Assembly: GCA_016933575.1 (NCBI GenBank)
Contig: JAFGAR010000070.1
Span: 21,755 to 85,754, forward strand
Origin: Candidatus Thorarchaeota archaeon
Lineage (GTDB): Archaea; Asgardarchaeota; Thorarchaeia; Thorarchaeales; Thorarchaeaceae
Reading direction: 5' to 3'
Length of the DNA stretch: 64,000 nt
Part shown: positions 36,147 to 52,734 of the stretch, piece by piece
How the letters are laid out: the number at the start of each line of letters is the position of its first letter
Numbering within the stretch: position 1 is the stretch's first letter
Notes under the pieces: generated by a model
Databases searched by the model: none
Told to the model about the DNA's origin: nothing
The model's input: the letters and a program-made list of their open reading frames with translations, nothing else
Program-made: the position numbers and the translations under genes

Positions 36147-37976
36147 TTATCGAGTGTATCTATATCCTGTTTTTTTCTTCCAAAGAATGACTGCTGCTCC
36201 AAGAAGAAATCCTATTCCACTCATTATTGGAATTACATATCTCTCCAAACGAAGCTCTGCAACAAGCGGATTTGTTCCCTCTAAGTACTCTCTTAGATTT
36301 GATACTTGATCGTTATCCGGGTCCTCTTGAGAATCATCGGTACCTGGGTCAAGTCCATTCTGAACTTCCCACAGGTCTGGTATGGTATCCTGATCAGAGT
36401 CAAGTGAAAACGGATTGGAATTCGCCAGATACTCCTGAAGATTCGTCAATGTATCGCCGTCTTCGTCATTGAGGGCATCGGTTGGGTCTAAAGGATTAAG
36501 GTGGTATTGCAACTCCCAATTATCTGGAATCATATCTTGGTCTGAATCACTATTTGTCCATGATGTTCCTAGTATCATTTCTTCTGCATCGGAGATTGTA
36601 TCAGAATCACTATCAATTGAGAAATACTCTTGACCAATCCAGAATTCTTCACTATCCGATACCATATTACCATCTATGTCTGATTCATATTCGCAAGACA
36701 TCTCAAAACCGGTACTTGTTCCTCCCTGATTGTATATTTGAATACGATATATTCCATTAGACATCAAATACTGCTGGAGAACCACAGTTGGTTCCCAAGG
36801 GGAACCATGATTATACTCAACTTCTTTCAGGAGGATATTATCTGGATCATAAATAGCAAAGGTTGCGGATCCCCCATACCACCTGCAGGAGACATTAACG
36901 GTTGTTGGGTTGGTATTGACAAGGTAGTAATTTCTTTGAGCTCCAGGAATTATTACTGACTTTCTCTCTCCTATGGTATTCTGATTGTATGCTCTTGCCA
37001 TCGTAAATGCGATGCTTGCCCCAATTGATTTGACTCCCTCAATTGCTACATTGTAATCATAATTAGGATTATCCCAGACATCATTCGCAGTATGGTAGGC
37101 TCCATCAATGTTGAAGCCACTCTCATGAGCGAAGAGAGATCTTTCAAATCCCTGAATTATAAACGAGTAATGGTCCGAAGCAGTCCATCCAGGAAAGTCG
37201 CTTTCGCTGACTGGTTCAATCATATCCTGTCCAAAATTCTTGCTCATTGCACATGGTAGGTCTGCCCAGTACTTGCCATTATGATATGCTGCAAACGGAT
37301 ATGCCATCAATACAGTAGCATCATGTGGTGAGGGAACAAGTAACATATCGATATTATAGTGAACGAGGAGTTCTACATCTCTGTCATCAAGAATTTCAGC
37401 GACTTCATTTGATCCCCTCAATCCAATCTCTTCCGCGTTCCATGCACCAAAGTAAATATCGAGAGGCCATTGATACTGTGAAAGAACACGAGCTAGCTCA
37501 AGCATAGTAGCTACTCCAGAGCCATCATCATTTGCTCCAGGACCTTCTATTACGCTATCAAAATGCCCTCCAACAAGAAAAGCGGGAGCATCAATGGGAA
37601 GGTATCCGGGAAGTCTACCAAGAACAGACTGATAGTCCCCAAGGATTTCGACCTCGATTCTTCCATTTGACACTCTATACATCTCCTGAGCAATCCAGTT
37701 CTTCGCAGCAATATTGGCATCGCTCATTGTATTTGGTGACAATATCCATCTTGAACCATTCTCAGTAAGCTTGATAATATAGTTCTGAAAAGAAGTCTTG
37801 GAGATGGATTCAAAGATTATCTCTGAGTAATCCTCTCCATAGACTCTATTTGCTATCAGTGATTGTATCACCTGTGGAGTGTGTACATTTTGTTTTGCCA
37901 CTGAGATTGCTGTGACTCCGGTCTGTGAGGTCAAGAGAGTGAAACAGATGATTACTGTTAATATGAGTCGCCTCAT
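36147..37976 (-). CDS. membrane-anchored M28 aminopeptidase with TSP3-like Ca-binding repeats
   Basis: signal peptide; GHFDS, GANDDGSG, AEEIGLRGS, NIDM, YHT complete zinc ligands; DSD.D...D..E repeats; C-terminal TM. Confidence 0.9.
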   Translation of the reverse strand: MRRLILTVIICFTLLTSQTGVTAISVAKQNVHTPQVIQSLIANRVYGEDYSEIIFESISKTSFQNYIIKLTENGSRWILSPNTMSDANIAAKNWIAQEMYRVSNGRIEVEILGDYQSVLGRLPGYLPIDAPAFLVGGHFDSVIEGPGANDDGSGVATMLELARVLSQYQWPLDIYFGAWNAEEIGLRGSNEVAEILDDRDVELLVHYNIDMLLVPSPHDATVLMAYPFAAYHNGKYWADLPCAMSKNFGQDMIEPVSESDFPGWTASDHYSFIIQGFERSLFAHESGFNIDGAYHTANDVWDNPNYDYNVAIEGVKSIGASIAFTMARAYNQNTIGERKSVIIPGAQRNYYLVNTNPTTVNVSCRWYGGSATFAIYDPDNILLKEVEYNHGSPWEPTVVLQQYLMSNGIYRIQIYNQGGTSTGFEMSCEYESDIDGNMVSDSEEFWIGQEYFSIDSDSDTISDAEEMILGTSWTNSDSDQDMIPDNWELQYHLNPLDPTDALNDEDGDTLTNLQEYLANSNPFSLDSDQDTIPDLWEVQNGLDPGTDDSQEDPDNDQVSNLREYLEGTNPLVAELRLERYVIPIMSGIGFLLGAAVILWKKKTGYRYTR

Positions 37977-37988
37977 AGTTTTTCCTCA

Positions 37989-39857
37989 TTATTCCTTAGA
38001 ATTCTTTAATCTTCGAATATAAAGAAACACTACGATAGGCGCAATGACAACAATCGGTGATATTGTCAGTAAAATCTGCATGGAATTATATTCTAGGGCA
38101 TAAGGATTCGTTCCATCTAAGTACTCTTGGAGATTGCTCTTTCCATCTACGTCAGGATCGAGTTCAGCATCATTGATCAGTGGATTAAGGCCATTTTCAA
38201 GCTCCCATAAGTCTGGTATCATATCGGAATCTGAATCTTCGGAGTATGGATTAGTTCCAACTGAGTATTCTTGAGCATTGCTCAAGCCATCTTCATCAAC
38301 ATCGAGACTTCCATCAGCGGGATCTGTTGGATTGAAACCCCAATCGACTTCATACTTATCATCCATGATATCAAGATCAGAGTCAGTAAGAGTAACATCA
38401 GTACCTAGGAATATTTCTTCTGCGTCGGACAGACCATCGTTATCTTGATCTAAATTGAAATATGCCTGATTCAACCAATACTCTTGACTATCAAGCACGT
38501 TATTTCCATCGATATCAGACTCAAAGGTCATTGAGATCTCGTAGCCTATTGAATTATAATAGGCGTTTTCAATAACGAATGCGTAAAGTCCATTGCTGGT
38601 CACTTGGGTGTTAAAGACATCTGTTGGAAACCACGCTGAAGTATGATTATATAATGCACTATCAATAATATTGAGGTTTGGATCATAGAGATAGAAGTTG
38701 GCAGGTCCTCCGAACCATCTTACACTGATATTGACTGAAGTAGGCGTTGTTACAGGAATGTAATAATACGCAATTCTTCCAGAACGTACCGTGTCTTCGA
38801 ATACTAGGGCATTGGGCTCTCCATATCGGCGGCTCATCGTATAAGCTAAGATTGCGGCAATTGTTCCCCCTGTTTCCTGCGCAAGTATGTAGTCGTACTC
38901 AACATTGTTCCATCTATCGTTTGATGTTAAGTAATTTCCATCAACACTACGTCCCGATTCAAAGGCACAAACAATGTTAGTATATCCTTCAGCGACGAAA
39001 GAGTAATGATCTGATCCTGTCCAAAGGAAGAAGGAGTTTGATGCAATTGGTACAAATGCTCCCATTCCATAATTTTGACTAATTGCTCGTGTGAGATCGC
39101 CCCAATATTGTCCCTCATGATATTGCGAAGTTGCTCCTTCGAGATACCCTATCTGAATATATTCATCTCGCGGGAGGGCAAGGTTGGGCACAAGAATCGA
39201 ATCAATATTGTATAAGGTAAGAATATCTATTTCTCTATCGACAAATTCCTCAGCGACTTCCTGACTTCCTCTCCTGACAGGGACTGAACTGTCACTCAGA
39301 AGATCATAGACATAGAGCGCGTTGAATGCAATGAAATAGATATCAAGTGGCCAATCATAAAATGAAAATATCCTTGCGAGTTCCAGCATAACTGCAATAC
39401 CAACGCCATCGGAATTCGCCCCAGGCGAATTCGGTACTGCGTCATAATGAGCTGAGATAACAAATACCGGATTGTTACCTGGCAAGTAGCCTGCTAATCT
39501 GCCTACGACATTCTTGTAGTCACCAATTATTTCAATCTCTATTTTACCTCTAGTTTTTTGATATAACTCTTGAATGATATAGTTTCGTAGATACATATTT
39601 GCTCCTACGTTCACATCGCCTAGCTCTTGCACATCCCTTGAACCATTCTCTGTTAATTTTTGGACAAGTGATTCAATAGTGGAGGAACTGAGTTGTTGAT
39701 AGAGTTCTTCTGCAATATTCTTGCCATAAATACGGTTTCCCACAGATTCTGGAGAAGCTGAAGGACTAGCAGCATCAATTGGCACTTCATTGGCAGTACT
39801 ATTTAATGGACTGATTAAAATCAAGCCAAGTATGATAATGGGCCATAGATGCTTCAT
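37989..39857 (-). CDS. M28-like paralog with TSP3-like repeats, predicted catalytically inactive
   Basis: same architecture but GANSDG, FNALY (no EE) and NYLT (no His). Confidence 0.85.
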   Translation of the reverse strand: MKHLWPIIILGLILISPLNSTANEVPIDAASPSASPESVGNRIYGKNIAEELYQQLSSSTIESLVQKLTENGSRDVQELGDVNVGANMYLRNYIIQELYQKTRGKIEIEIIGDYKNVVGRLAGYLPGNNPVFVISAHYDAVPNSPGANSDGVGIAVMLELARIFSFYDWPLDIYFIAFNALYVYDLLSDSSVPVRRGSQEVAEEFVDREIDILTLYNIDSILVPNLALPRDEYIQIGYLEGATSQYHEGQYWGDLTRAISQNYGMGAFVPIASNSFFLWTGSDHYSFVAEGYTNIVCAFESGRSVDGNYLTSNDRWNNVEYDYILAQETGGTIAAILAYTMSRRYGEPNALVFEDTVRSGRIAYYYIPVTTPTSVNISVRWFGGPANFYLYDPNLNIIDSALYNHTSAWFPTDVFNTQVTSNGLYAFVIENAYYNSIGYEISMTFESDIDGNNVLDSQEYWLNQAYFNLDQDNDGLSDAEEIFLGTDVTLTDSDLDIMDDKYEVDWGFNPTDPADGSLDVDEDGLSNAQEYSVGTNPYSEDSDSDMIPDLWELENGLNPLINDAELDPDVDGKSNLQEYLDGTNPYALEYNSMQILLTISPIVVIAPIVVFLYIRRLKNSKE

Positions 39858-39943: not shown

Positions 39944-41245
39944 TTGTATAGATATTTGGTTGGATTAAGAATGCCTTTGACGGATTTTCCTTCAGATCTT
40001 CAAATCAAAGATCCCATTCATGGGTACATAGATCTATCCGATGTGGAACACGCATTGATTGATTTGCCTATTACTCAACGATTGCGTTACATCAAAGGTC
40101 CTGCAGGTCTTTCTCTTGTGTACCCGGGCGCAGATATTGCACTTCTTGGAAGAACGCTCGGTTTTCTTCATATGACTCGGATATTCCTAGAATATCTGGG
40201 CGGAACAATCGAAGAGATTCAGAAAGGGCGACTTGCTTCCTTCTTACTGATGTTGACCAATGGTCCTTGGGCAAATGTCATGGAGGAATATCTATCCATT
40301 CGAGGCGCTAATCCACTAAAACTAACAAAGGCTATTCTAGACAATACTGAAGTTGGAGATGTAATTGAACAATATAGTTTTACAAAAGCCGAAATCTACA
40401 ATGTTCTGGAACATGGTGTTCCGATAAAAGGCCTGCAATTGAACATTAGGGATTGCCCTATAAATGCAGAGCTAATAGACGATCTTGAACGGGACTCTTA
40501 CTTCGCAGGAGTTGATTACGCTCAATTAGAGTTCCATCGTCTCTTCGCCGCAACAAGAATTGCTAAGAACAAGATTGCAGTTGAACGTGGCTCACTGTTT
40601 ACCCTTGAATCATATCTCTCTGCAGCTGTCAATATGTTTGATGCTATCTATTTTCACAAGACAGTTAGAGCTTCAGAACTTATGTTATTACGAGTACTTG
40701 AAGAGGCTGGTTCCCAGTTGTTCCCATTTCCCTTGGATGATACACAGGGCTTCTACAAATTCGATGACCTCTCTTTTCTATATCGACTTCTTAATGTGTC
40801 AGACAACGAGTCTGAGGAGTTCAAAGAAGCAAGTCGTATCTTCTCAGACTTCAATAAACGCTATTTGATTAAACTTGTGAGTGCAAGATCCATCTCCGAT
40901 CCATCTTTCTTAAACAAGTTATCAACACCCGATGGGCTCTTTGCGATAGAGCAAGAGATAGCAGATGATGCGGGTATCGATTCTCGAAATGTGTACCTGG
41001 ATTTTCCAGATAGGATTTCAGTCACCTTCTATCCTGGAAAATTGGATCTTGACGGTCTTGTTCTTTTTGAAAGAGGGTCCAGTGGTTATGAGTTCTGGAA
41101 AGTCAATGATTCAAGTCCAATGGCAAGAAGCTTCACACGGATTTTGAAACCTGTTCGTGTGTATACGACAAGAGGTTATAGATCAAAACTAAAGAAGTCT
41201 GCTGACCGAGTTCTAGAAAGTGTGGATGTGCAAGGCGCAGCCTGA
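39944..41245 (+). CDS. SAMHD1/dNTPase-like HD-domain protein lacking the HD motif
   Basis: IKDPIHGYI, QRLRYI, VYPGA, RDSYFAGV, IYFHKTVRASE; HD position reads LM; likely start ATG 39971. Confidence 0.8.
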   Translation: MYRYLVGLRMPLTDFPSDLQIKDPIHGYIDLSDVEHALIDLPITQRLRYIKGPAGLSLVYPGADIALLGRTLGFLHMTRIFLEYLGGTIEEIQKGRLASFLLMLTNGPWANVMEEYLSIRGANPLKLTKAILDNTEVGDVIEQYSFTKAEIYNVLEHGVPIKGLQLNIRDCPINAELIDDLERDSYFAGVDYAQLEFHRLFAATRIAKNKIAVERGSLFTLESYLSAAVNMFDAIYFHKTVRASELMLLRVLEEAGSQLFPFPLDDTQGFYKFDDLSFLYRLLNVSDNESEEFKEASRIFSDFNKRYLIKLVSARSISDPSFLNKLSTPDGLFAIEQEIADDAGIDSRNVYLDFPDRISVTFYPGKLDLDGLVLFERGSSGYEFWKVNDSSPMARSFTRILKPVRVYTTRGYRSKLKKSADRVLESVDVQGAA

Positions 41246-41366: not shown

Positions 41367-43643
41367 GTGTTCTCTTGCAATAACTGTCGTGAACCCCTGT
41401 TCATTCTAAATGCTGATATTAAGGACCATATATTAACCCTCGAAACCCAATGTCTTAATGGTCACAGGAGCACAAGACGAATTGCAGAGCATCAGATTAA
41501 AGATATGGGATTAGAGGTTTTCAAGAAACTCTTTGTCTGTACCGATTGTGGTTCAAACATGACACTAGTGGATATACCTACTCATGGAATTAGAATCGAA
41601 GGAATCTTCCTATGCCCAAAACACGGAATTCAGAAGCGCGATTTTCCTCGAGAATTCATTTCTACAGTCCAGCTTGCTGCTGCTGAGGTTGATAGTCCTC
41701 GATCCATCATTGACTCATTCAGATGTCCACAGTGTGGTCTTGTCTATGCTATCAGTAACATTGAAGAAAGACGTGGGGTTATCGAAGTTGATGCAAGGTG
41801 TGCAAATGGACATAAGACGGATCTATACCTGCCCGGAAATATTGAATCGACACTGTTAAAGCGAATCCTTCAACGAGTTGTTCACTGCGATAGATGCGGA
41901 CTACCTGGGCATATTGTCAATGTTGAGAAGCGAGGAAATTCTGTTCGTATCTATTCATCATGCCCTGTTCACGGTGTGACTAAGAAAGATATTCCTTCAA
42001 TGTTCATGGACTTATTGAATGAAGCTGTTTCCGAAATACCTGAGGATGCAGTCCTTCGCGCAACATTGACATCACGGGATTGCCGACAGCATCTGGCTAT
42101 CCGTTCTATTGAAGATGACAAATCCGGTTACAAATTGAGGTGTGTATGTCCAGGCACTAACCAAATTACTGATGTAATCCTACCATTGACATGGAATGAG
42201 GCAATCGCAAGTAGGATTACATCTGCAATGTTGACATGTGACGTATGCGGTCATTTGACTCATATCTTGGCTAAACGTAAGACCAGCAAGAAAGTCCAAT
42301 TTCAAATTGTGTGCCCAATTCATGGTGTGATGCAACGTGAAGTCCCGCCTAAGTTGTTTACTATAATCTCCGACCATGAACAGACTCTTGACCGTCTACC
42401 TTCAATTGTCCGAAGTCTCAGTTGCGAGAAATGCAGTATGCCTCTTACTCTCAGGGATGTCGAAGAACGACGCGGTCTGATCGAGTTTGATGTCGAATGT
42501 AGAAATGGACATCGGAGTAAGCGACTCTTCAAGCCAGGTCTTGAATCAGAGACCCTTGTTGATCTCTATAAACGATTCTTCCAATGCCCTGAGTGCTATG
42601 AACAATTAGACCTTGTCTATGTTGAAGCTGGCGGCAGAGAGGATAGAGTTGTTCAACTATGTCCCGTTCATGGCAAATATGTCTTCGATATCCCTCCAGA
42701 TCATGCCGAAGCAATGAAGAAGGCATATAATGAAATTCAGGAAGACAAGACTAAACCTCCAGTTGATGCACCTGAACCTGAAGAATCTAAGACTCTCGAA
42801 GATGCTGCTGAATCCATTGACACATCTGAAATAGGTGTGCAGGTGATGCGAGGTTGTGAGATTGTTGGTGGCAAATTCGACTATAAAGTAAAGATTCTCA
42901 ATAACAGTGGCTACGTAATAACTAACGTGACAGTGAGTATAGTAGCATATCCTGTTGATTGCATGGAATTGGCTGGAGAGAGTGTGAAGACAATCTCCCG
43001 AATCGAGGTTGGTGGTTTTAGAAGCCCTCAATTCACATTCTATCCAACAAAGGATTGTGTTCAAGGAAAGATCGTTGCAACTGTTTCATATATTGACTTC
43101 CTTGACCAACTGCACACGATGAGTGTAGAGCCATATCTGATTCGTTCTGTATGTGATCTATTGACTCCCTTAAAGAAAACATCGGCTGATTTCGATCTTG
43201 TGCTATCAAGTCTTGAGAAGACACAACAGGAACAGACACTCGATTGGAATGCAAAGGTCTTGTTTACTAAAGCAGAGAAGATACTTCCTACAAAGAATTT
43301 TCATGTTATCGATACCGAAGAACATGTAGTTGCTGGGGAATTTATTGGCACTTTGAGAGGGTTTGCAGAGGGGAAGTACACAAAACGTAAGATTGCAGTA
43401 GTGATTATGATATGTGGTCCTGAGAATGGTCGTCATGCGGTTGTCAAGGTTGAAGCTCTAGGTGAAGATGTTTCCATGCTACCAACAACCATTGATGAAT
43501 TGGCTGATACGATGGACTCTTGGGTCTGCCTTCGTTGCGGAGCTCCTCTTGAGACCGATCAGGTTGACGAACTTGGAAAACGGCTCCCTATACGCTGCAA
43601 ATATTGTACTCATACATTAACAATTGCACTCTACCTTCAATGA
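41367..43643 (+). CDS. multi-Cys3His zinc-module protein with adaptin/COP appendage-like domain and C-terminal Zn ribbon
   Basis: 8 modules CxxC-x21-CxNGH / CxxC-x21-CPxHG (module 5 degenerate); beta-sandwich + alpha/beta platform region; CLRC...CKYC. Confidence 0.75.
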   Translation: MFSCNNCREPLFILNADIKDHILTLETQCLNGHRSTRRIAEHQIKDMGLEVFKKLFVCTDCGSNMTLVDIPTHGIRIEGIFLCPKHGIQKRDFPREFISTVQLAAAEVDSPRSIIDSFRCPQCGLVYAISNIEERRGVIEVDARCANGHKTDLYLPGNIESTLLKRILQRVVHCDRCGLPGHIVNVEKRGNSVRIYSSCPVHGVTKKDIPSMFMDLLNEAVSEIPEDAVLRATLTSRDCRQHLAIRSIEDDKSGYKLRCVCPGTNQITDVILPLTWNEAIASRITSAMLTCDVCGHLTHILAKRKTSKKVQFQIVCPIHGVMQREVPPKLFTIISDHEQTLDRLPSIVRSLSCEKCSMPLTLRDVEERRGLIEFDVECRNGHRSKRLFKPGLESETLVDLYKRFFQCPECYEQLDLVYVEAGGREDRVVQLCPVHGKYVFDIPPDHAEAMKKAYNEIQEDKTKPPVDAPEPEESKTLEDAAESIDTSEIGVQVMRGCEIVGGKFDYKVKILNNSGYVITNVTVSIVAYPVDCMELAGESVKTISRIEVGGFRSPQFTFYPTKDCVQGKIVATVSYIDFLDQLHTMSVEPYLIRSVCDLLTPLKKTSADFDLVLSSLEKTQQEQTLDWNAKVLFTKAEKILPTKNFHVIDTEEHVVAGEFIGTLRGFAEGKYTKRKIAVVIMICGPENGRHAVVKVEALGEDVSMLPTTIDELADTMDSWVCLRCGAPLETDQVDELGKRLPIRCKYCTHTLTIALYLQ

Positions 43644-43724
43644 ACTTCATCAAATGCGGAGTACATATTAGGAAGCCAAGAGAATCCCAAATTTGAGTTA
43701 TTGCAATGTGAGGTATCAGCGGAC

Positions 43725-45572
43725 ATGTTCTCCTGTAAGAAGTGTAAGGAACCTTTCTATGTTCTTGGAAGTGAGATGAAAGGGAGTACCGTTCGAATCT
43801 ATTGTCAATGTCTCAATGGTCATAAGGGGAAGCGAGACATCGGAAGATATCAAGCAGATAGTATGGCTCCTGAAATTTTCAAAGGTCTTTACACCTGTGT
43901 AGGATGCGGTTCAGTAATGTCCTTGGTCCATATAGATCTGGGAAGATATGAAGTAGAGTATGAATTTCTTTGCCCTATTCACGGTCCACAGAAAAAGAGA
44001 ATCCCATCATTCTATCATAGTGCAGTGACTGGAATGAAAGAACATATGAATAGCGCAAAATCCATTCTTGACTCTCTCAGTTGCCCCAAATGTGGACAAA
44101 TCTTCTCTGCTCATGAAGTATCCGAGAAGAAAGGAATCATGGAGTTCAAATATCGATGTCCAAATGGTCACAAAGAACTGAGATTTGCTCCAACTGATGC
44201 AGACCCTTCCATTCTAAAGACATTATTCAAACGACTTATCCACTGCGAACAATGTGGTCTTCCCTGTCAGTTATTGGAAATCAATACAAAAGGTGAAACT
44301 GCAAAAGTAGAGATCTCATGTCCTGCACATGGAAAGATGAAGAAAGAAATGCCTTCAAAGCATGCATGGATGCTTGATAAAATAGCAGAAGCCGTGTCTG
44401 AAGGAACAATTGCACGTTCAATGTTGAACTGCACTCAATGCAAAGGCGGCTTATCAATAAAGAGTATAGATCTTGAGAAGGACAAATACAAGCTAAAGTG
44501 TAGTTGCCCCAATGGTCATTCCTCGGAACTCAGTCAACCCACAGATCTTGACGAAGAGGCTATCGATGTGATTGTTAGAGGTATCATGAAGTGTAATGAT
44601 TGCGACCTCCTAACTGAGATTGTCAACAAAAAAGTAAGCGGGAATACTATCGAACTTGAATTGGTGTGTCATGTTCATGGACTAATGCACAAACAGATGA
44701 AACCTGACATTTTCAAACATCTGGAAAGCAGAGAACCCCGACTTGATCGCAAGGGCACTATTGAGGAGAGTCTAAAATGCACAAAGTGTTCTGCACCTGT
44801 AACCATCCGTGATACCAAGATGAAAGAACATTACGTGGAGTTAAAGGTCGATTGTCGCAATGGCCATGGAAGTGAGAGATATCTCTCAAATACTGCTTAC
44901 TCTGATTCTCTCTCAAGAATATACATGCAACTATATGAGTGTCACAAGTGCCATAATCCACTTGATCTACATCATATAGAAGAATTGACTGACAGTGCAG
45001 ATGTCAACCTTCTCTGTGAACAACATGGTGAGTCGAGGATTATTATCCCTCTTGCACATGCTACTGAGGCTCGAGATGCCTTCCTCTTGACCAAGTCTCT
45101 TGAAGATCTACAACAAATGTTGGATACAAAGCTCCAGACCCAACATGCTTGTGAGTATCAACTTGAGTCGGATGCTGATCCCGTTGAGATGTTAGAGATA
45201 GTCAAGAATGTCATCGAACAGCACAACGTTCTCTTTGTTTCAGAAAACACTGATGCAAAAGGAGCTGTGGAAGCATGGTACTATGGGAAAGCTCTTGCTG
45301 GGGATGAGTTCATCGTAGTTGGAGCCGTTTCAAAAGAGAATCGAACCATACGAATATCGGTGGCTAGTGATAATGAATCAAAACTTGAATTAATGCTTTC
45401 TGAGATGCGAGACAATCTGCGCGAGATACTTCTTAGGGTCCAGAAGCAATCTGATGATATCACTCCACGAAAGATTGCTTGTCCACAATGTGGCGTTGGT
45501 CTTGCTAAGAGGGCTTTACCCGGAGAAACAATAAAGTGTGAGCACTGTGGTACTCCACTACACTGGGGTTAA
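43725..45572 (+). CDS. multi-Cys3His zinc-module paralog with platform-like domain and C-terminal Zn ribbon
   Basis: same 8 alternating modules; start MFSC at 43725 with GAGGT upstream; CPQC...CEHC. Confidence 0.75.
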   Translation: MFSCKKCKEPFYVLGSEMKGSTVRIYCQCLNGHKGKRDIGRYQADSMAPEIFKGLYTCVGCGSVMSLVHIDLGRYEVEYEFLCPIHGPQKKRIPSFYHSAVTGMKEHMNSAKSILDSLSCPKCGQIFSAHEVSEKKGIMEFKYRCPNGHKELRFAPTDADPSILKTLFKRLIHCEQCGLPCQLLEINTKGETAKVEISCPAHGKMKKEMPSKHAWMLDKIAEAVSEGTIARSMLNCTQCKGGLSIKSIDLEKDKYKLKCSCPNGHSSELSQPTDLDEEAIDVIVRGIMKCNDCDLLTEIVNKKVSGNTIELELVCHVHGLMHKQMKPDIFKHLESREPRLDRKGTIEESLKCTKCSAPVTIRDTKMKEHYVELKVDCRNGHGSERYLSNTAYSDSLSRIYMQLYECHKCHNPLDLHHIEELTDSADVNLLCEQHGESRIIIPLAHATEARDAFLLTKSLEDLQQMLDTKLQTQHACEYQLESDADPVEMLEIVKNVIEQHNVLFVSENTDAKGAVEAWYYGKALAGDEFIVVGAVSKENRTIRISVASDNESKLELMLSEMRDNLREILLRVQKQSDDITPRKIACPQCGVGLAKRALPGETIKCEHCGTPLHWG

Positions 45573-45585
45573 ATCAGAGGTCCTT

Positions 45586-46194
45586 TCATTCGCCTGTCCA
45601 GACAGCAGCTGATTCTCTATGAGAACTGATATGCGAAAGAATCCTATCAATCACTGAATCAACCAAATCCTCAATTGTCTTAGGCAGATGCCAGAATGCG
45701 GGACTAGCAGGTATCACTATTGCACCAGCAGATGTGACCTTCTCCATATTCTGGATATGAATCAGATTGAGAGGCATCTCTCTTGGTACAATGATTAACT
45801 TTCTACGTTCCTTAAGCGCACAATCAGCTGCTCGTGCAATTAGATTGTCTGCATAGCCATGGGCAATTCCAGCCAATGTCTTCATTGAACAAGGAATAAC
45901 CACTACTGCATCAAGATGAAAGCTTCCACTTGCAGGTCCTGCAGTCAATTCATCTTCGGAGTACACCTTATCGACTTCATCTGCAAGTGCCTCTGCATCT
46001 ATCCCCATCTCATACTTGAGTGTTTCCGCACCCCATCTGCTTACAACAAGATGTACTTCATGCCCAGCTGTTTTCAGAGCTCTAAGTAACCTGACTCCAT
46101 AGATTGTGCCGCTTGCGCCTGTGATTCCAATGAAGATGCGTTTCTTATTCAATGAAATACCCTCTCGTTCTTCAATAATTCCATATCTGTACAT
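45586..46194 (-). CDS. ubiX: flavin prenyltransferase UbiX
   Basis: GITGASG.IYG, ASGSF, PCSMKTLAGIAHG.ADNLI.RAAD..LKERR, PREMP; true start probably near 46152. Confidence 0.93.
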   Translation of the reverse strand: MYRYGIIEEREGISLNKKRIFIGITGASGTIYGVRLLRALKTAGHEVHLVVSRWGAETLKYEMGIDAEALADEVDKVYSEDELTAGPASGSFHLDAVVVIPCSMKTLAGIAHGYADNLIARAADCALKERRKLIIVPREMPLNLIHIQNMEKVTSAGAIVIPASPAFWHLPKTIEDLVDSVIDRILSHISSHRESAAVWTGE

Positions 46195-46226
46195 ATACTT
46201 CTATCGAAACATGCTATTAGTAATGC

Positions 46227-48221
46227 CTACAATAGAAACGCAAGGAGAAACGCTGCTAAGAGCGATCCAATGCCAACTCGGATTCCAACTCGCTTCGCTA
46301 TACCCGCAGCCTCTGCAATATCCTGAGTCAGAACATCGAAACCTTGCTCGCCAAGTGTATTGAGATTGTTTACTTTTCCAAAACCAAGACCTACTTCTAC
46401 AGGTCTCATACTTTCTCTTGCTTTAACTGATGCAACAATGATATGCTCTAGGATCTCTTGCGGTTTGTTTCTTCCCACAGGGGGATATCCTCTACTTGAG
46501 AGAGAAATAGCATTCACAACATGCGTATCTGTTGTTACAATCTCCGCACTATCATAACCTTGTGCTCTTAGTATACTGATTACTTGTTCTCTAAATCCGG
46601 GTTCCATGTTATTTCCATCAATCGCTACTAGAGCAAACTTCTGATTATCATATTTGAGTGCAATGGCAGTCACTCCTCCTGGTCCTATTCCTTCCTTTGG
46701 ATTGATATCTTCAGGAAAGATCTGGAAGATGCCCATCTCCACAGGAGTCCTTGGTTCGTTCAGAGTTGAGAAGACTGCACTAGATACAGTACCTACGAAT
46801 TCTTTTGCAGCAGGATCTCCGGGCACGACTGACACTGCATCGTCGTTGATACAATTGTGTGCATCAACAATCGCAGTACCTTGTATCTCAGGAATGCGTT
46901 TGCGAATCATATTAGCAGCATCATAGCCAACTTCAAGCGCAATATCGTCCGTAAATTCCGGAGCACTTGTTGTAATCGTTAGAACATCTCTACCAACAAA
47001 CATAGTCCACACCTTGAACTTGCCACCATCTGTCCAATGCGGTCCTGACATCTCTGTAAAGACAGAAGTCTCCTCTATCAATCTATCAATCTCGTCGAGA
47101 ACCTTGGAGTAGTCATCCTTTGATGTCAGATTCTGTTGATGTGTACATGTTCCATGCATCACAAAAGACGGTATCCTATGCTTCTCCATGATATGCTCCA
47201 TGATTACGGAAGGTAGGTCACTACTACCAACATCTCTGAATGGTCCAGGGTGTATATATTGGATAACTCCACAAGCTAGTAACTTTGATTGGTCATTAAC
47301 ATCCCTAAACACAATGATCTCCATTGGTACATCTTGCTGAGTTGATATCTTTGTCAATATTGTATCAATAGGTATTGGATCGCCAGCTAGATAGTCGTAT
47401 CCAAAAGCCTGCAGAAGTTTCGGACCACTAATTCCAAGATCTCTCTCGAATGGAATACTTACTGATCTGTAGATATAGTGAACCGCTAGGATTGAGATTG
47501 TAACGATTATTGGAAGTGAGATATACCAATACATGGACAATTCAGGCACAGCAGGATCTAGTGGACTTAGGATAAATTCAGAAGTTAACCAGAATATTAG
47601 AGGAATCGATGTTCCTATGAAATTGCGCATTTCACCATGGTCACTTAATGCATTTACCAGAAATGAATACATCAGGAACCCTAAACTTGCTCCCATCATC
47701 CAGAATCTAATCTCATAGAACTGTATTGCCATGATTGAATCTACAACAACACCAATTATTCCCATGACAAACCAGATGAGGTTACCAAACATGACAGATC
47801 CAGCTGTTCTTCTTGCATCCAGAGGACTGCCCTTACTTGCAAGTATGAGATACATTACCCCTGTTCCTAGAAAGGTTGGAATTCCAAGAACAATTACATA
47901 GAGAATTAGGGTCCAGAGTGGTTCTGCGGCAAGCCCGTTCATCATTTTGAAGATAGTCGCTAGACTTGAGAAAAAGAGAACCTCAATTCCCATTATTCCT
48001 AGAATCCCTTGAAAGGAAGGTAACTGCCATATCTTCTCAAACAAACGGACGGTTTCCTTGACTTTTGCCTTTTCTCCCAATGGAACAGCCTCGTCGTGTT
48101 TCTGAGTTCCCAGAGTTGGACTTCTTATCAAACTTGTCTTTAGCCATATTACACAGGATAGTCTGTTGTCTGGACAAGAAGATTTATATCGGATACGATA
48201 TCGCATTCGATAATCGAACAC
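46227..48221 (-). CDS. DUF2070 family membrane protein
   Basis: N-terminal TMs, IHPGPFRDVGSS, HGTCTH, VDAHN, DGNNM, TTDTH motifs; true start probably TTG near 48080. Confidence 0.85.
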   Translation of the reverse strand: MFDYRMRYRIRYKSSCPDNRLSCVIWLKTSLIRSPTLGTQKHDEAVPLGEKAKVKETVRLFEKIWQLPSFQGILGIMGIEVLFFSSLATIFKMMNGLAAEPLWTLILYVIVLGIPTFLGTGVMYLILASKGSPLDARRTAGSVMFGNLIWFVMGIIGVVVDSIMAIQFYEIRFWMMGASLGFLMYSFLVNALSDHGEMRNFIGTSIPLIFWLTSEFILSPLDPAVPELSMYWYISLPIIVTISILAVHYIYRSVSIPFERDLGISGPKLLQAFGYDYLAGDPIPIDTILTKISTQQDVPMEIIVFRDVNDQSKLLACGVIQYIHPGPFRDVGSSDLPSVIMEHIMEKHRIPSFVMHGTCTHQQNLTSKDDYSKVLDEIDRLIEETSVFTEMSGPHWTDGGKFKVWTMFVGRDVLTITTSAPEFTDDIALEVGYDAANMIRKRIPEIQGTAIVDAHNCINDDAVSVVPGDPAAKEFVGTVSSAVFSTLNEPRTPVEMGIFQIFPEDINPKEGIGPGGVTAIALKYDNQKFALVAIDGNNMEPGFREQVISILRAQGYDSAEIVTTDTHVVNAISLSSRGYPPVGRNKPQEILEHIIVASVKARESMRPVEVGLGFGKVNNLNTLGEQGFDVLTQDIAEAAGIAKRVGIRVGIGSLLAAFLLAFLL

Positions 48222-48228
48222 GAAAATA

Positions 48229-48786
48229 TTGGAGTGTAGGATTATGACTAATGAGCCCTCTGAAAAAGGCTGCGAACATCTCAGTATGCCTCAATCAATA
48301 CCAAGAGGACTTCTTCGTCATATCATCCCCAGACTGTTACGGGCAAAGGAGATGACAGGCACTGATATTATGCAACGCCTAAGAGACCTCTCAGATGGGG
48401 ATTGGAATCCGAGTCCGGGTACTATCTATCCATTACTCTCGTCTCTCGAAGATGATGGTATTATTGAAGCAGCTTCAATGGAAGGTCGGAGTAAGACGTA
48501 CCGTCTCACAGAATCCGGTATGAACCAGATGATTTCTTTTATCAAACATCAACGTGGATCCGTTGGGGAAAAGACCCGCTTGGGACCACGACTTTGGGAG
48601 CAACTTCTTGATCCTGATGAGCGCATCCATTTCCATATGCATGGAATGACGCACTCTATGGAGTCTTTCGAATCTGTGTTAACATCACTTGACAAAAGAC
48701 AACAACAACGATTACTCAAATTCCTTGAAGAGATAGCAACAAGAATGCATTCAATCATTGATAAACTACTAACTGGAGTCACATAG
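48229..48786 (+). CDS. PadR family transcriptional regulator
   Basis: RGLLR, W.PSPGTIYPLL..LE..G.I, K.YRLTESG. Confidence 0.92.
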   Translation: MECRIMTNEPSEKGCEHLSMPQSIPRGLLRHIIPRLLRAKEMTGTDIMQRLRDLSDGDWNPSPGTIYPLLSSLEDDGIIEAASMEGRSKTYRLTESGMNQMISFIKHQRGSVGEKTRLGPRLWEQLLDPDERIHFHMHGMTHSMESFESVLTSLDKRQQQRLLKFLEEIATRMHSIIDKLLTGVT

Positions 48787-48787
48787 A

Positions 48788-50656
48788 ATGGCTAGAAACA
48801 ATGGCGGCGAAACGATAAGAAAATCTCCTTGGAGATACATGCTCAGCGGAATGACACGAAACAAAGCAATCGCAAGCATAGGGCTGTTTCTCGTGATGAT
48901 CTCTACAATACTGACTGTTTTTCCATCCGTCTTCATTGGTCTTGCGGTGACTGAGATTCTAACGACTGCAACATTGACAGCTCAGTTCACATATTATGTA
49001 TGGCTTATTGTCATCTTTGCACTAGCATACATGGGTCTCTATTTTGTAGGTGGGTATGTTTGGGCAACACTTACTCTACGATGGGAACGAGATGCCCGAC
49101 AGGACTTCTTTGAAGCCTTACAAGTCTATAGTATGACCTTCCATGATGAGTTTGATAGTAAACGGTTACTCTCCGTAGCTATGCAAGATATATTCTGGGT
49201 TCGATTCTCACTCAATCCAGCAATGAGAAATATTGCTACCGGTCTTAGCTCATTTTTCATCACCTCGATTCTTCTTATACAAATTGACTTTCTACCAGGT
49301 CTCAATTCTCTGATAACCCTTCAACTTAGTGGATTCACATTTCCAATCTATGGATTTTCAATTATCATGATTGTTGGATTTCCAATTTACCTATTCTTTT
49401 CTTATCGCTATGCTAATACAATCGAGCCTGTGAGAAGAAAACGTGCAGAAAATATGGAATCATTAACTGCAGTAACACAAGGTGTCTTTCAAGGTATTGA
49501 AGTTGTTAGAGCATTTGATGCTGAGGACATTGAGGTGAAAAAATTCCATGAGGTTAGCAAAATTCAGGAAGAATTAACGGCAAAGGAAGGAAAACTGTCT
49601 GCCTTTTACTTGCCTGCACTCATCTTAGCAGGAATGACTACAATTGCTCTCGCATATGCTGGTTATGCAGTCATCAATGGAATCTTGGACCCTGGACAGA
49701 TGATTACTATTCTTGGACTACTTACATCACTCCAAGGACTCAATTTCCAGTTCCCTGCAATGTTATTGATGTTAAGAGGAGGCTATGTTAATGCTCAGCG
49801 TGTTGTAGAATTATTGAATTGGAATGATCCCATGTTTGAGCCAGAGGATGAAGTATTCAATGTAAATTGGACCAACGATATTATCTTTGATAATGTGAGT
49901 TTCAAATACGGACGCGAAGAGAATGGAAATCCTCACTACGCGCTCAGAGACCTATCCATCACCATTCCTGGTGGTTCACGTGTTGCCCTTATTGGCGGAC
50001 CTGGCGCAGGAAAGAGTACATTTCTCAAACTCCTGCTTCGTTTATACGATCCAACCTCTGGTGAAATTCGGGTTGGTGGAGTGAATCTTCGAAACATATC
50101 TACAAAAGCTGTGAGAGATGTTGTAGGACTTGTTGAACAGGACATCTTTCTCTTTAGAATGACTGTCCGAGATAATATTGCCTTTGGTAGATCTGATGCA
50201 TCTTATGATGAGATAGTAAAAGCTGCAAGACGTGCTCAAGCTGATGAATTCATTGTGCAACTGCCTGATGGTTATGATACGATGATTGGCGAGAGAGGAA
50301 TGACATTAAGTGGTGGCCAACGACAACGACTAGCTATAGCCCGTGCAATCATTCAGGATCCCAAGATATTGTTATTGGATGACTCTGTGAGTGCAGTTGA
50401 TGCTCAGACTGAATATCTAATGCGAAAGGCGCTAGATGAAGTGATGCGGGATCGAACGAGTATTACTGTGACTCAACGATTACGAACACTGATGGAGGCA
50501 GACATCGTAATTATTCTTGACAAAGGTGGTCTTATCGCAACAGGAACACATGACGAATTACTCAGAGACTCAGAGCAATACCGCCGTGTCTTCGAGCGGC
50601 TCCCTGGTGCTCAAGAGTTACTTGCTACAGTCTCTCAGAGTGGAGGTGCTCCATAA
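48788..50656 (+). CDS. ABC exporter half-transporter (TMD+NBD, degenerate site)
   Basis: GGPGAGKST, LSGGQRQR, LLLDDSVSAVD (E to D), TQR (H to Q). Confidence 0.93.
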   Translation: MARNNGGETIRKSPWRYMLSGMTRNKAIASIGLFLVMISTILTVFPSVFIGLAVTEILTTATLTAQFTYYVWLIVIFALAYMGLYFVGGYVWATLTLRWERDARQDFFEALQVYSMTFHDEFDSKRLLSVAMQDIFWVRFSLNPAMRNIATGLSSFFITSILLIQIDFLPGLNSLITLQLSGFTFPIYGFSIIMIVGFPIYLFFSYRYANTIEPVRRKRAENMESLTAVTQGVFQGIEVVRAFDAEDIEVKKFHEVSKIQEELTAKEGKLSAFYLPALILAGMTTIALAYAGYAVINGILDPGQMITILGLLTSLQGLNFQFPAMLLMLRGGYVNAQRVVELLNWNDPMFEPEDEVFNVNWTNDIIFDNVSFKYGREENGNPHYALRDLSITIPGGSRVALIGGPGAGKSTFLKLLLRLYDPTSGEIRVGGVNLRNISTKAVRDVVGLVEQDIFLFRMTVRDNIAFGRSDASYDEIVKAARRAQADEFIVQLPDGYDTMIGERGMTLSGGQRQRLAIARAIIQDPKILLLDDSVSAVDAQTEYLMRKALDEVMRDRTSITVTQRLRTLMEADIVIILDKGGLIATGTHDELLRDSEQYRRVFERLPGAQELLATVSQSGGAP

Positions 50657-52734
50657 TGGGTATGCACGGACCTATGGTTAGTCGTGGAGGTCCTGGAGCT
50701 CTTATGGGCAAGAAGGAAAAGAGAAGTCGTCCGATTCGAGTTCTACTTGGTAGAATGGTCCTTTACCTTGGTAAGTTCAAACGTATTACTATCATCGGCG
50801 CTATTCTCTCACTTGCAGCAACAATCGTTGGCGTAATTATTCCTCTGGTTTTGAGGGATAGTATTAATTCTGTTTACTTAGAAGGTTCTCTTAATATACT
50901 CGTGACACTGACCATATTATTTCTAGTACTCTCTATTGTAACATGGATAATGAGTGGTGTTAATACCTGGATCATGTCAATCGCTCAAGCAGGGTTAGTT
51001 CAGAGTGTTCAGGAGGATGTCTATAGACATTTAGTAAATGCAGATCTCTCATATCATAAAGCTGAACAGGCTGGAAATGTCACTTCTAGAGTCACTAGTG
51101 ATGCGACAAATCTCAGTACTGGAATACAGGTATTGATTAATTTCGCAAGCCAAGCTCTCACGCTTGTTGCATCTTTCATCCTTCTTTGGTTGATGTCACC
51201 ATTTCTTGCTCTTACTTCCCTTGTAGTTGTACCTGGTGTTCTCTTCATTGCTGCCATCTTTGGTACAGTTGGCCAGAGAATCATGCTAGCCTCGCAACGG
51301 GCGTCTGGTGAAGTATCGGGTCAGATAGCGGAAAATCTAAGCGGTATCCATGTAGCTAAAGCATTCAATCGAGAAGACGAGCTTGCAGAGGATTTAATGA
51401 GTTTGAACCAAAAGGCATACCGCTATGGTTTCCGATTCATGATTCTGATGACATCAATGCAACCACTAATGATGGCAATAGGACAATTTGCCATTGCTGC
51501 TATGCTCTTTGTAGCTGGGTCATTGGCCGTAGGTACTCTTCCTCTCCTCAATCTTGGAGATATCTTTCTTGCTATATCACTGGTTCGCGGAATCATGTTT
51601 CCTCTCCTAGGATTATCCATGATGGCAACACAAGTTCAATCGTCACTAGCTGCAATGGACCGTGTCACTGATGTTCTGGAGTCAAAACCTGCTATCACAG
51701 ATTCCATAAACGCAGAGCCGCTTCTTGCAGAAAATGATGGAATCTACTTCAAGAATGTCACATTTGAGTATGTCAAGAACACTCCAGTCCTAAAGGACGT
51801 CAGTTTCTCAATCAATCCTGGGGAAACTGTGGCTATTGTAGGACATACTGGAGCTGGAAAGACAACTATTGCTGCACTTGTGAACCGGTTCTATGACCCG
51901 ATTGATGGTGGAATCTACATTGGCAACCAGAATATCAGAGAAGTTCAATTACATTCTCTTCATAGCTCCATGTCACTCATACCTCAAGAACCATACTTGT
52001 TTGATGATACAATCATGGAAAATATACGATATGGAAAACTTGATGCAACCGATGAAGAGATAATCAATCTATGCAAGATTCTTGGAGCTGACGAGTTTAT
52101 CGATGTGCTTGCTGATGGGTATCAGACTCGAATCATCCAAAGTGGCAAGAATCTGAGTGCTGGTCAGCGTCAAATGATTACTATTGCACGAACTATGCTT
52201 GCCAACCCTAAGATATTAATTCTTGATGAAGCAACAAGCCGTCTTGATGCGTACAGCGAATCTCTAGTGCAGGATGCTCAAGAACAGTTATTCCATGATA
52301 GGACTACAATTGTTATTGCTCATCGTCTAACCACAATCGCAAATGCTTCTCGAATCCTCGTCTTTGATCACGGTTCTTTAGTAGAGCAGGGTACACATGA
52401 AGAGCTTCTTGCTCAAGATGGCATTTTCAAGGCTCTCTATGAGACCTATTATGCACACCAAGGAATTGAGGAAATCACAGAAGATGTGGTCGAAGTTGCT
52501 AAGTCTGTAGTTACAGAATATGGTGGCGAAAAACCCGAACCTGTTGGTCAGGGAATGATGACAGGTTCCGGGATGTTAGGAGTCCATTCACAAATGACCC
52601 CGGAGATGATAGAGAAATTAAAAGAACGTCTTGAGAATGATCCTGATTCACTTCCTCCTCAAATGAGAAAGATGATCGAGGAGAAATTCAAGAAGAAGGA
52701 AGAGAGTGAGGTGTCAGGAACTGGTGGAAAATAG
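50656..52734 (+). CDS. ABC exporter half-transporter (TMD+NBD), heterodimer partner
   Basis: GHTGAGKTT, LSAGQRQ, ILDEATS, IAHRL. Confidence 0.93.
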   Translation: MGMHGPMVSRGGPGALMGKKEKRSRPIRVLLGRMVLYLGKFKRITIIGAILSLAATIVGVIIPLVLRDSINSVYLEGSLNILVTLTILFLVLSIVTWIMSGVNTWIMSIAQAGLVQSVQEDVYRHLVNADLSYHKAEQAGNVTSRVTSDATNLSTGIQVLINFASQALTLVASFILLWLMSPFLALTSLVVVPGVLFIAAIFGTVGQRIMLASQRASGEVSGQIAENLSGIHVAKAFNREDELAEDLMSLNQKAYRYGFRFMILMTSMQPLMMAIGQFAIAAMLFVAGSLAVGTLPLLNLGDIFLAISLVRGIMFPLLGLSMMATQVQSSLAAMDRVTDVLESKPAITDSINAEPLLAENDGIYFKNVTFEYVKNTPVLKDVSFSINPGETVAIVGHTGAGKTTIAALVNRFYDPIDGGIYIGNQNIREVQLHSLHSSMSLIPQEPYLFDDTIMENIRYGKLDATDEEIINLCKILGADEFIDVLADGYQTRIIQSGKNLSAGQRQMITIARTMLANPKILILDEATSRLDAYSESLVQDAQEQLFHDRTTIVIAHRLTTIANASRILVFDHGSLVEQGTHEELLAQDGIFKALYETYYAHQGIEEITEDVVEVAKSVVTEYGGEKPEPVGQGMMTGSGMLGVHSQMTPEMIEKLKERLENDPDSLPPQMRKMIEEKFKKKEESEVSGTGGK

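Follow-up and report, generated by a model that had tools for sequence, protein, structure and literature searches.

A Thorarchaeota paralog pair joins predicted zinc-module arrays to an appendage-like ear that recurs as the cytoplasmic tail of Asgard membrane proteins

What is an adaptin-like ear doing at the end of a string of predicted zinc ribbons in an archaeon? Adaptin- and COPI-type ears are interaction hubs of eukaryotic vesicle coats. The question is raised by two adjacent open reading frames (ORFs), A and B, in a stretch of 64,000 nucleotides (the window) on contig JAFGAR010000070.1 of a Candidatus Thorarchaeota archaeon. A first-pass annotation, made from the sequence alone, had proposed that A and B form an undescribed heterodimeric proto-coat or adaptor. 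Our analysis leads elsewhere. The ear, together with the ribbon that follows it, is a widespread Asgard domain that serves mostly as the cytoplasmic tail of membrane proteins. We favour, at a probability of roughly 0.55, a role for A and B as soluble docking scaffolds, in which a zinc-ribbon rod presents an ear that would share its partner with the membrane-tail ears. The two frames and their parts, in residues (amino acids, aa) and window positions, are as follows.

41367-43643, + strand: ORF A, GTG start, 758 aa
41367..42725, + strand: predicted zinc-module array of A, four tandem two-module units (aa 1-453), from the motif scan, unit alignment A4 and homology to the folded part of B
42726..42836, + strand: acidic, Pro-rich hinge of A (aa 454-490, isoelectric point (pI) 4.05), from composition; poorly conserved among orthologs
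42837..43142, + strand: immunoglobulin (Ig)-like beta-sandwich of the A ear (aa 491-592), starting with the family hallmark RGCEIVGG
43173..43508, + strand: alpha/beta platform of the A ear, TBP/helix-grip-like (aa 603-714), from the structure model
43515..43643, + strand: terminal C4 zinc ribbon of A (aa 717-758) with the stop codon, CLRCG...CKYC, cysteines invariant in alignment A1
43725-45572, + strand: ORF B, read from ATG, 615 aa
43725..45044, + strand: array of B, eight intact Cys3His (CCCH) zinc-ribbon modules (aa 1-440), from the motif scan and the AlphaFold2 (AF2) model of aa 233-615
45093..45458, + strand: platform-only ear remnant of B (aa 457-578), from the structure model
45480..45572, + strand: terminal C4 zinc ribbon of B (aa 586-615) with the stop codon, CPQCG...CEHCG, invariant in alignment A2

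The mechanically called frame of B opens with TTG at 43701. We read it from the ATG at 43725 because its orthologs begin MFSC or MFTC. The two genes lie 81 bp apart on the same strand, in a window with a G+C content of about 42%. BLASTP aligned the two proteins at 33% identity over 498 aa (E 2e-109) and also gave internal repeat alignments offset by one and two units. More than 100 orthologs conserve the architecture, which rules out a chance origin, and the named relatives of A and B belong almost throughout to Thorarchaeota. A paralog pair of alternating modules with MFSC-type starts, as described in the first-pass annotation, is thus borne out by the ORF check, BLASTP and the motif scan.

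The C-terminal 274 aa of A, folded together with 41 orthologs, gave a model with a predicted local distance difference test (pLDDT) score of 71. The model runs from an eight-strand sandwich (491-592) through a short junction, LLTPLKKTSADF, into the alpha/beta domain (603-714) and the ribbon. A C-terminal Ig-like sandwich followed directly by an alpha/beta platform is the layout of an appendage, and the combination of IG-like and TBP/helix-grip subdomains is the one by which archaeal appendage regions have been defined (PMC10936438). The appendages of AP2, COPI and the BBSome were the top structural matches of this fold in Foldseek and VIA, which answers the comparison that the first-pass annotation had proposed. 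The known structures among the top Foldseek and VIA matches are the ears of AP2 alpha, AP2 beta2, AP-4 beta4 and COPI gamma (1b9k, 1e42, 2mj7 and 1r4x) and 9qpq_H (COPI leaf).

In B, the platform is fixed rigidly to module 8 through two helices, with neither hinge nor sandwich. Its best matches are adaptins, which rank above KA1 domains; the VIA rows for the B model cover the platform part and not the zinc modules. The models therefore place the sandwich, junction and platform of A, and the lone platform of B, where they had been predicted from sequence. Like adaptin and COPI ears, A carries its sandwich and platform at the C-terminus on a flexible acidic Pro-rich hinge, and B is comparable to the ear of AP-4 beta4, which is naturally platform-only. 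Unlike those ears, A and B have no detectable sequence similarity to them and carry an extra C4 ribbon past the platform, and the orientation of the subdomains in the A model differs. The ear is the best conserved part of A, with a mean column identity of 82% (alignment A1) compared with 75% in alignment A3, which adds modules 5-8 and the hinge to the A1 region.

At E<=1e-3, profile A1, built from the ear of A, matched 507 clusters in a search of 1.84 billion representatives; with the limit at E<=1e-30, 154 remained. The matching proteins are between 129 and 2867 aa long. The ear lies almost always at the C-terminus and opens with the hallmark (V/L)LRGCE(I/V)VGG. Named family members come from Thorarchaeota and Helarchaeota. 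Within the phylum, the ear is present in 112 of 301 genomes, concentrated in the host's family (65/76 genomes) and three other families; it was not found in several well-sampled families (0/28, 0/19 and 0/21 genomes). The host genome has nine copies, ORF A included.

An upstream hydrophobic, transmembrane (TM) helix is found in 102 of the 139 assessable representatives (about 73%), at a median distance of 58 aa from the ear. Fifty-one of these 102 have the layout (signal peptide)-ectodomain-TM-ear, 40 are multi-pass proteins and 11 have an N-terminal anchor. The count of Lys and Arg residues is 3.25 past the last TM helix and 0.53 ahead of it, and the ear therefore lies on the cytoplasmic side. 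The ectodomains include SBBP propellers, beta-helix/NosD, FG-GAP, bacterial Ig, SBP_bac_5, LVIVD and TSP3 domains. The linkers are Arg-rich next to the membrane and then Pro-rich or acidic, a character shared by the hinge of A. The terminal C4 ribbon is present in 90 of the 139 representatives. Soluble members carry TPR, HEAT, WD40 or LRR repeats ahead of the ear, and fusions to UFL1/PCI also occur; in one member, P0232, EAP30/Vps36 is located after the ear. The data show the pair's architecture and folds as well as the ear's domain family and its association with membranes.

Several members of the family have features of their own. One contig of the host genome (L010:5744-11291) has four tandem genes of 348-393 aa, with an EamA transporter gene in between; in each product, a linker of about 60 aa connects an N-terminal TM helix to an ear. 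The motif IPG[VL]...S.V lies about 20 aa ahead of the ear in three of these linkers; as a general linker motif, IPG[VL] was rejected, since 3 of 131 linkers have it, compared with 2/500 in the background. Another contig of this genome encodes a 766-aa soluble protein (L011:7387-9687) with a coiled-coil-like N-terminus followed by two tandem ears. An Arrestin_N-like gene (L011:4549-5403) lies about 2 kb upstream of it on the opposite strand, and double-ear proteins also occur in other genomes (P0123-P0127). On a third host contig, a gene for a 420-aa partial-ear protein and that of a 377-aa WD40 beta-propeller are divergent neighbours (L013:5895-7157 and L013:7250-8383), an arrangement of solenoid plus ear beside propeller that recalls the parts of a protocoatomer. 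The HEAT_2 match of the 420-aa protein is weak (E 1.1e-4, 22.9 bits, below the cut-off of 27.7), and P0245 (705 aa) is a clearer case of HEAT plus ear. A 718-aa protein of the host genome (L012:635-2791) combines an ear with an E3_UFM1_ligase (UFL1-like) match, which at 26.7 bits exceeds its cut-off, and a weak PCI match just short of its own, and a Promethearchaeota UFL1/DDRGK/PCI cluster is found among the structural and feature neighbours. In P0162, P0174, P0176, P0205, P0256 and about 25 others, the C4 ribbon is replaced by a tail of 57-261 aa, commonly about 140-150. These tails may be the Vps28-C or longin parts known from the literature; Pfam, run on ten tails of 140-260 aa from these roughly 30 members, gave nothing above threshold and did not confirm that identity.

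The trunk that carries the ear is of a different kind from that of adaptins. A regular-expression scan placed CxxC-x21/22-CxxxH modules at residues 4, 58, 120, 174, 291, 353 and 407 of A and at residues 4, 58, 120, 174, 236, 290, 352 and 406 of B, giving seven intact modules in A and eight in B. Two module types alternate strictly, CxxC-x21/22-CxNGH and then CxxC-x21-C(P)xHG. Module 5 of A (about aa 233-290) is degenerate, its first Cys and its His being gone, and this loss is common to orthologs. The CxxC...CxxC ribbons at the ends span residues 721-747 of A and 586-608 of B. The motif scan and the ortholog alignment agree with the first reading both on the degenerate module and on the C4 ribbon at the end of each protein. 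The earlier description, with up to nine metal sites in each, is thus correct, the possible sites by motif being eight in A and nine in B. Across the 28 two-module units aligned (A4), only C7, C29, C58, C61, C83 and H86 are invariant; the ligands are conserved without exception across units and orthologs.

The AF2 model of B aa 233-615 (pLDDT 92, predicted template modelling score (pTM) 0.86) shows three strands plus a helix in each module. The strands form an antiparallel sheet flanked by two knuckles, with C4/C7 ahead of strand 1 and C29/H33 between strands 2 and 3, as in a CCCH zinc ribbon, and the helix follows each module. The model supports the earlier proposal that the trunk is a rigid zinc-module array and not an alpha-solenoid.

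Searches of A and B against Pfam and NCBIfam returned sub-threshold generic zinc-ribbon matches only. The zinc-array architecture has no family in either database, and its bearers are named 'hypothetical protein' or generic zinc-ribbon protein. 'Undescribed', as the pair had been called, therefore applies to this architecture and not to Asgard appendage homologues, which have been reported (PMC10307638, PMC10936438). Rubredoxin and radical-SAM families were absent from the Pfam and NCBIfam scans of both proteins, and the suggested likeness of the CxxC...CPxHG module to the rubredoxin-like N-terminal domain of tetraether synthase drew no support from any search. On the B platform, a Sel_Asgard match reached E 0.0014 and 18.6 bits, below its cut-off of 132, and is treated as noise or a lead.

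Names of this sort would suit proteins that bind nucleic acid in transcription or RNA metabolism, with a KA1/TBP-like platform that binds nucleic acid or lipid. The names, however, go back to a generic likeness to zinc ribbons, and no Pfam or NCBIfam match reaches its cut-off. The charge of the proteins weakens the case further: the pI is about 7.8 for the arrays, close to neutral, and 4.6-5.2 for the acidic platforms. With the ear found mainly on membrane-protein tails, and with adaptins outranking KA1 domains among the matches of the B platform, we regard nucleic-acid binding as highly improbable.

The terminal ribbon of A also drew a zf_UBZ match that, at E 0.002 and 18.2 bits, falls below the cut-off of 25.6 and is likewise taken as noise or a lead. 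[quoted passage not shown] The fusions of the ear to UFL1-like/PCI and EAP30/Vps36 in family members are consistent with this, as are a published proposal of ESCRT-0 analogues and the zinc ribbons of Asgard ESCRT proteins (PMC10936438). The match, however, falls on the C4 ribbon and not on the CCCH modules, which, as three-stranded ribbons plus a helix, are unlike NZF and UBZ. Ubiquitin-system genes were not found near A and B in three genomes. Modifier reading by the arrays is in our judgement unlikely.

Where do the modules come from? Within the host genome, profile A4, which represents the two-module unit, has no matches besides A and B. Elsewhere among Asgard families it detects small proteins with a single unit, present in 19/19, 6/6 and 15/68 genomes of three families. 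Their open frames encode 153-260 aa and match at E 1e-10 to 1e-14, and some have an N-terminal TM helix or an additional C4 ribbon. These CCCH double zinc-ribbon proteins contain the same unit as A and B, CxxC...C(P)xH(G) twice, and differ in that they have a single unit where A and B have four, and lack the ear; like the pair, they are uncharacterised. An ESM Atlas cluster of 162-aa Promethearchaeota proteins fits one unit with a root-mean-square deviation (rmsd) of 1.8 Å over 105 aa. In genome G297, from another Asgard family, a 583-aa protein (L034:1477-3228) has a single CCCH two-module unit and additional ribbons, together with a PCI-like winged helix, the ear and a ribbon at its end. Because this protein fuses a unit to an ear outside Thorarchaeota, the combination of zinc unit and ear is older than the eight-module arrays, which look like a lineage-specific amplification in Thorarchaeota. 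One pair of single-unit proteins (L031:1465-1950, 161 aa, and L032:1351-1824, 157 aa) divides the accessory features, the second having the N-terminal TM helix and the first the extra C4 ribbon.

Are A and B a pair? An obligate heterodimer, serving as a proto-coat or as an adaptor for cargo, in which the zinc array replaces the alpha-solenoid trunk of adaptins, would account for two co-directional paralogs 81 bp apart and for the order of trunk, hinge and ear, and AP-4 beta4 provides a precedent for the platform-only ear of B. The arrangement recurs, with B directly 3' of A in genera g1 and g5 and in one g12 genome, and B is present in 21 of 22 g1 genomes. Against this, the sampled genomes of g3, g6-g10 and g13-g16 yielded A only, and B stands alone in most of those sampled from g12. 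Genome G239, a single contig, places A at 2.44 Mb and B at 0.74 Mb, 1.7 Mb apart. Many of the genomes are metagenome-assembled and 74-98% complete, so single absences are weak evidence; the genus-level pattern is nonetheless consistent. A complex prediction of A 233-758 with B 233-615 gave a score of 0.00 (mark 0.32), which counts neither for nor against binding.

The neighbourhood gives a similar picture. It contains HD_assoc_2, a UbiX-like flavoprotein, DUF2070, PadR, two ABC exporters and M28 peptidases; trafficking genes and mu-, sigma-, Arf-like or cage-like genes were not found in it. The gene ahead of A is the following.

39944..41245, + strand: HD_assoc_2 (HD phosphohydrolase-like) gene, from Pfam, 121 bp ahead of A

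This neighbour is kept in two distant Thorarchaeota genomes (L014 and L015), where the order is HD_assoc_2, A and UbiX with B not in between; any functional tie between HD_assoc_2 and A is putative. Since A and B occur independently and the neighbourhood lacks trafficking genes, an obligate heterodimeric coat is not supported. Nor did the coat or adaptor role find support in the genes nearby, which lack mu, sigma, GTPase and cage-like functions; the synteny of the locus is with housekeeping genes. Most ears of the family, moreover, sit on membrane proteins themselves and not on soluble adaptors. We consider the heterodimeric proto-coat very unlikely.

Two further features of the locus were noted. 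The order HD_assoc_2, A, (B), UbiX-like flavoprotein, DUF2070, PadR and two ABC exporters (window 39944-41245 and 45586-52734) is conserved in the two distant genomes L014 and L015, and B looks like an insertion into this block. On the opposite strand, window 36147-39857 holds two tandem paralogous M28 peptidase genes of 609 and 622 aa. The second protein has a signal peptide and a C-terminal TM helix, and its Asp-rich repeat region gives a bacterial TSP3 repeat match.

How does this compare with earlier work? According to Eme et al. (2023), Asgard archaea have homologues of every AP/COPI domain, the appendage subdomains among them, unfused to one another (PMC10307638). In methanogens, haloarchaea and Asgard archaea, Makarova et al. 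(2024) recognised 'adaptin appendage regions' (IG + TBP); one methanogen protein has a zinc ribbon, and another protein is tied to a GOLD domain by a TM linker (PMC10936438). In Asgard archaea these regions co-occur with Vps28-C, longin, TPR, Ig and PCI domains, and the authors proposed that the proteins containing them are interaction hubs and ESCRT-0 analogues; they also pointed out zinc ribbons in Asgard ESCRT proteins (PMC10936438). The two-subdomain layout of A resembles that of arCOG15284 in methanogens and of the multidomain, ESCRT-linked Asgard proteins, compared here by description only, and relatives of the A ear share the combinations with TPR, Ig and wH/PCI. A and B stand apart from those regions through the eight-module CCCH array to which the ear is fused. 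They also differ from adaptins, in which the trunk is a HEAT solenoid within a heterotetramer; the trunk here is a zinc-ribbon array and heterotetramer partners are not encoded nearby, while other ear members (P0245 and the 420-aa protein) do carry HEAT. ESCRT genes were not found around A and B in three genomes; in the wider ear family, one member, P0232, carries EAP30/Vps36. Within the literature searched, neither the CCCH array nor the use of the ear as a common membrane-protein tail was described, and Koestlbacher et al. (2026) and Radler et al. (2026) gave no description of the A/B-ear family.

We propose the following for the docking scaffolds. A and B would be soluble cytoplasmic proteins of Thorarchaeota, each with a stiff rod of eight CCCH modules, made by amplifying a two-module unit that other Asgard lineages have kept as a small one-unit protein. 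In A, a flexible acidic hinge would bear the ear, composed of the Ig-like sandwich, the TBP-like platform and the C4 ribbon. The paralog B would have lost the hinge and sandwich and kept the platform and ribbon, fixed to the rod. By analogy with adaptin ears, the ear may be a protein-docking module that meets the same putative cytoplasmic partner as the ears on membrane-protein tails, and the zinc rod could act as a rigid spacer or as a multivalent binding surface. Given the family's fusion partners (EAP30, UFL1/PCI, HEAT, TPR and WD40), the process served is probably ESCRT-related, ubiquitin-like or one of membrane-protein sorting. Docking has a precedent in the appendage-like regions proposed as interaction hubs in archaeal ESCRT-linked proteins (PMC10936438).

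Several observations weigh against docking by an adaptin-like ear. The model of the A ear is of moderate confidence only, and its subdomains are oriented unlike those of solved ears (rmsd 12-15 Å over both). Taken alone, each subdomain, Ig-like sandwich or helix-grip/KA1-like platform, is a common fold. In hmmscan of A and B at E<=1, the eukaryotic appendage families of Pfam (Alpha_adaptinC2, Alpha_adaptin_C, B2-adapt-app_C and the COP-gamma platform) were unmatched, and profile A1 found no appendage chain and nothing relevant among PDB sequences at E<=1. Language-model features place eukaryotic ear clusters at 0.76, which is the level of a lead only. Zinc binding by the modules is likewise deduced from motifs, and ESCRT, GTPase and ubiquitin-like genes were absent near A and B in three genomes. 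Docking, the partner and the process are what we infer from these data.

What would the finding mean for these archaea? Appendage-like domains were already known in Asgard archaea, and their presence is not new. The new elements are a conserved, uncharacterised architecture with the ear suspended from a rigid rod of zinc ribbons rather than from a solenoid, and evidence that the same ear domain recurs hundreds of times, both as a cytoplasmic tail on Asgard membrane proteins and on scaffolds of the TPR, HEAT, WD40 and UFL1-like kinds. A wider reading, which we advance tentatively and hold to be rather doubtful, is that the ear and ribbon are a general cytoplasmic tail of Asgard surface and membrane proteins (substrate-binding, beta-propeller, beta-helix, Ig-repeat ectodomain and multi-pass proteins) and form, together with the soluble ear scaffolds (A, B, TPR, HEAT, WD40 and UFL1-like), a network that sorts, clusters or anchors membrane proteins. 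If true, this would invert the eukaryotic logic, with the ear on the cargo and not only on the adaptor, and an ear on cargo could be the ancestral state of adaptor-based cargo selection. The prokaryotic prehistory of ears bears on the origin of membrane trafficking, and this small, highly conserved ear offers a testable handle on an Asgard-specific intracellular interaction network.

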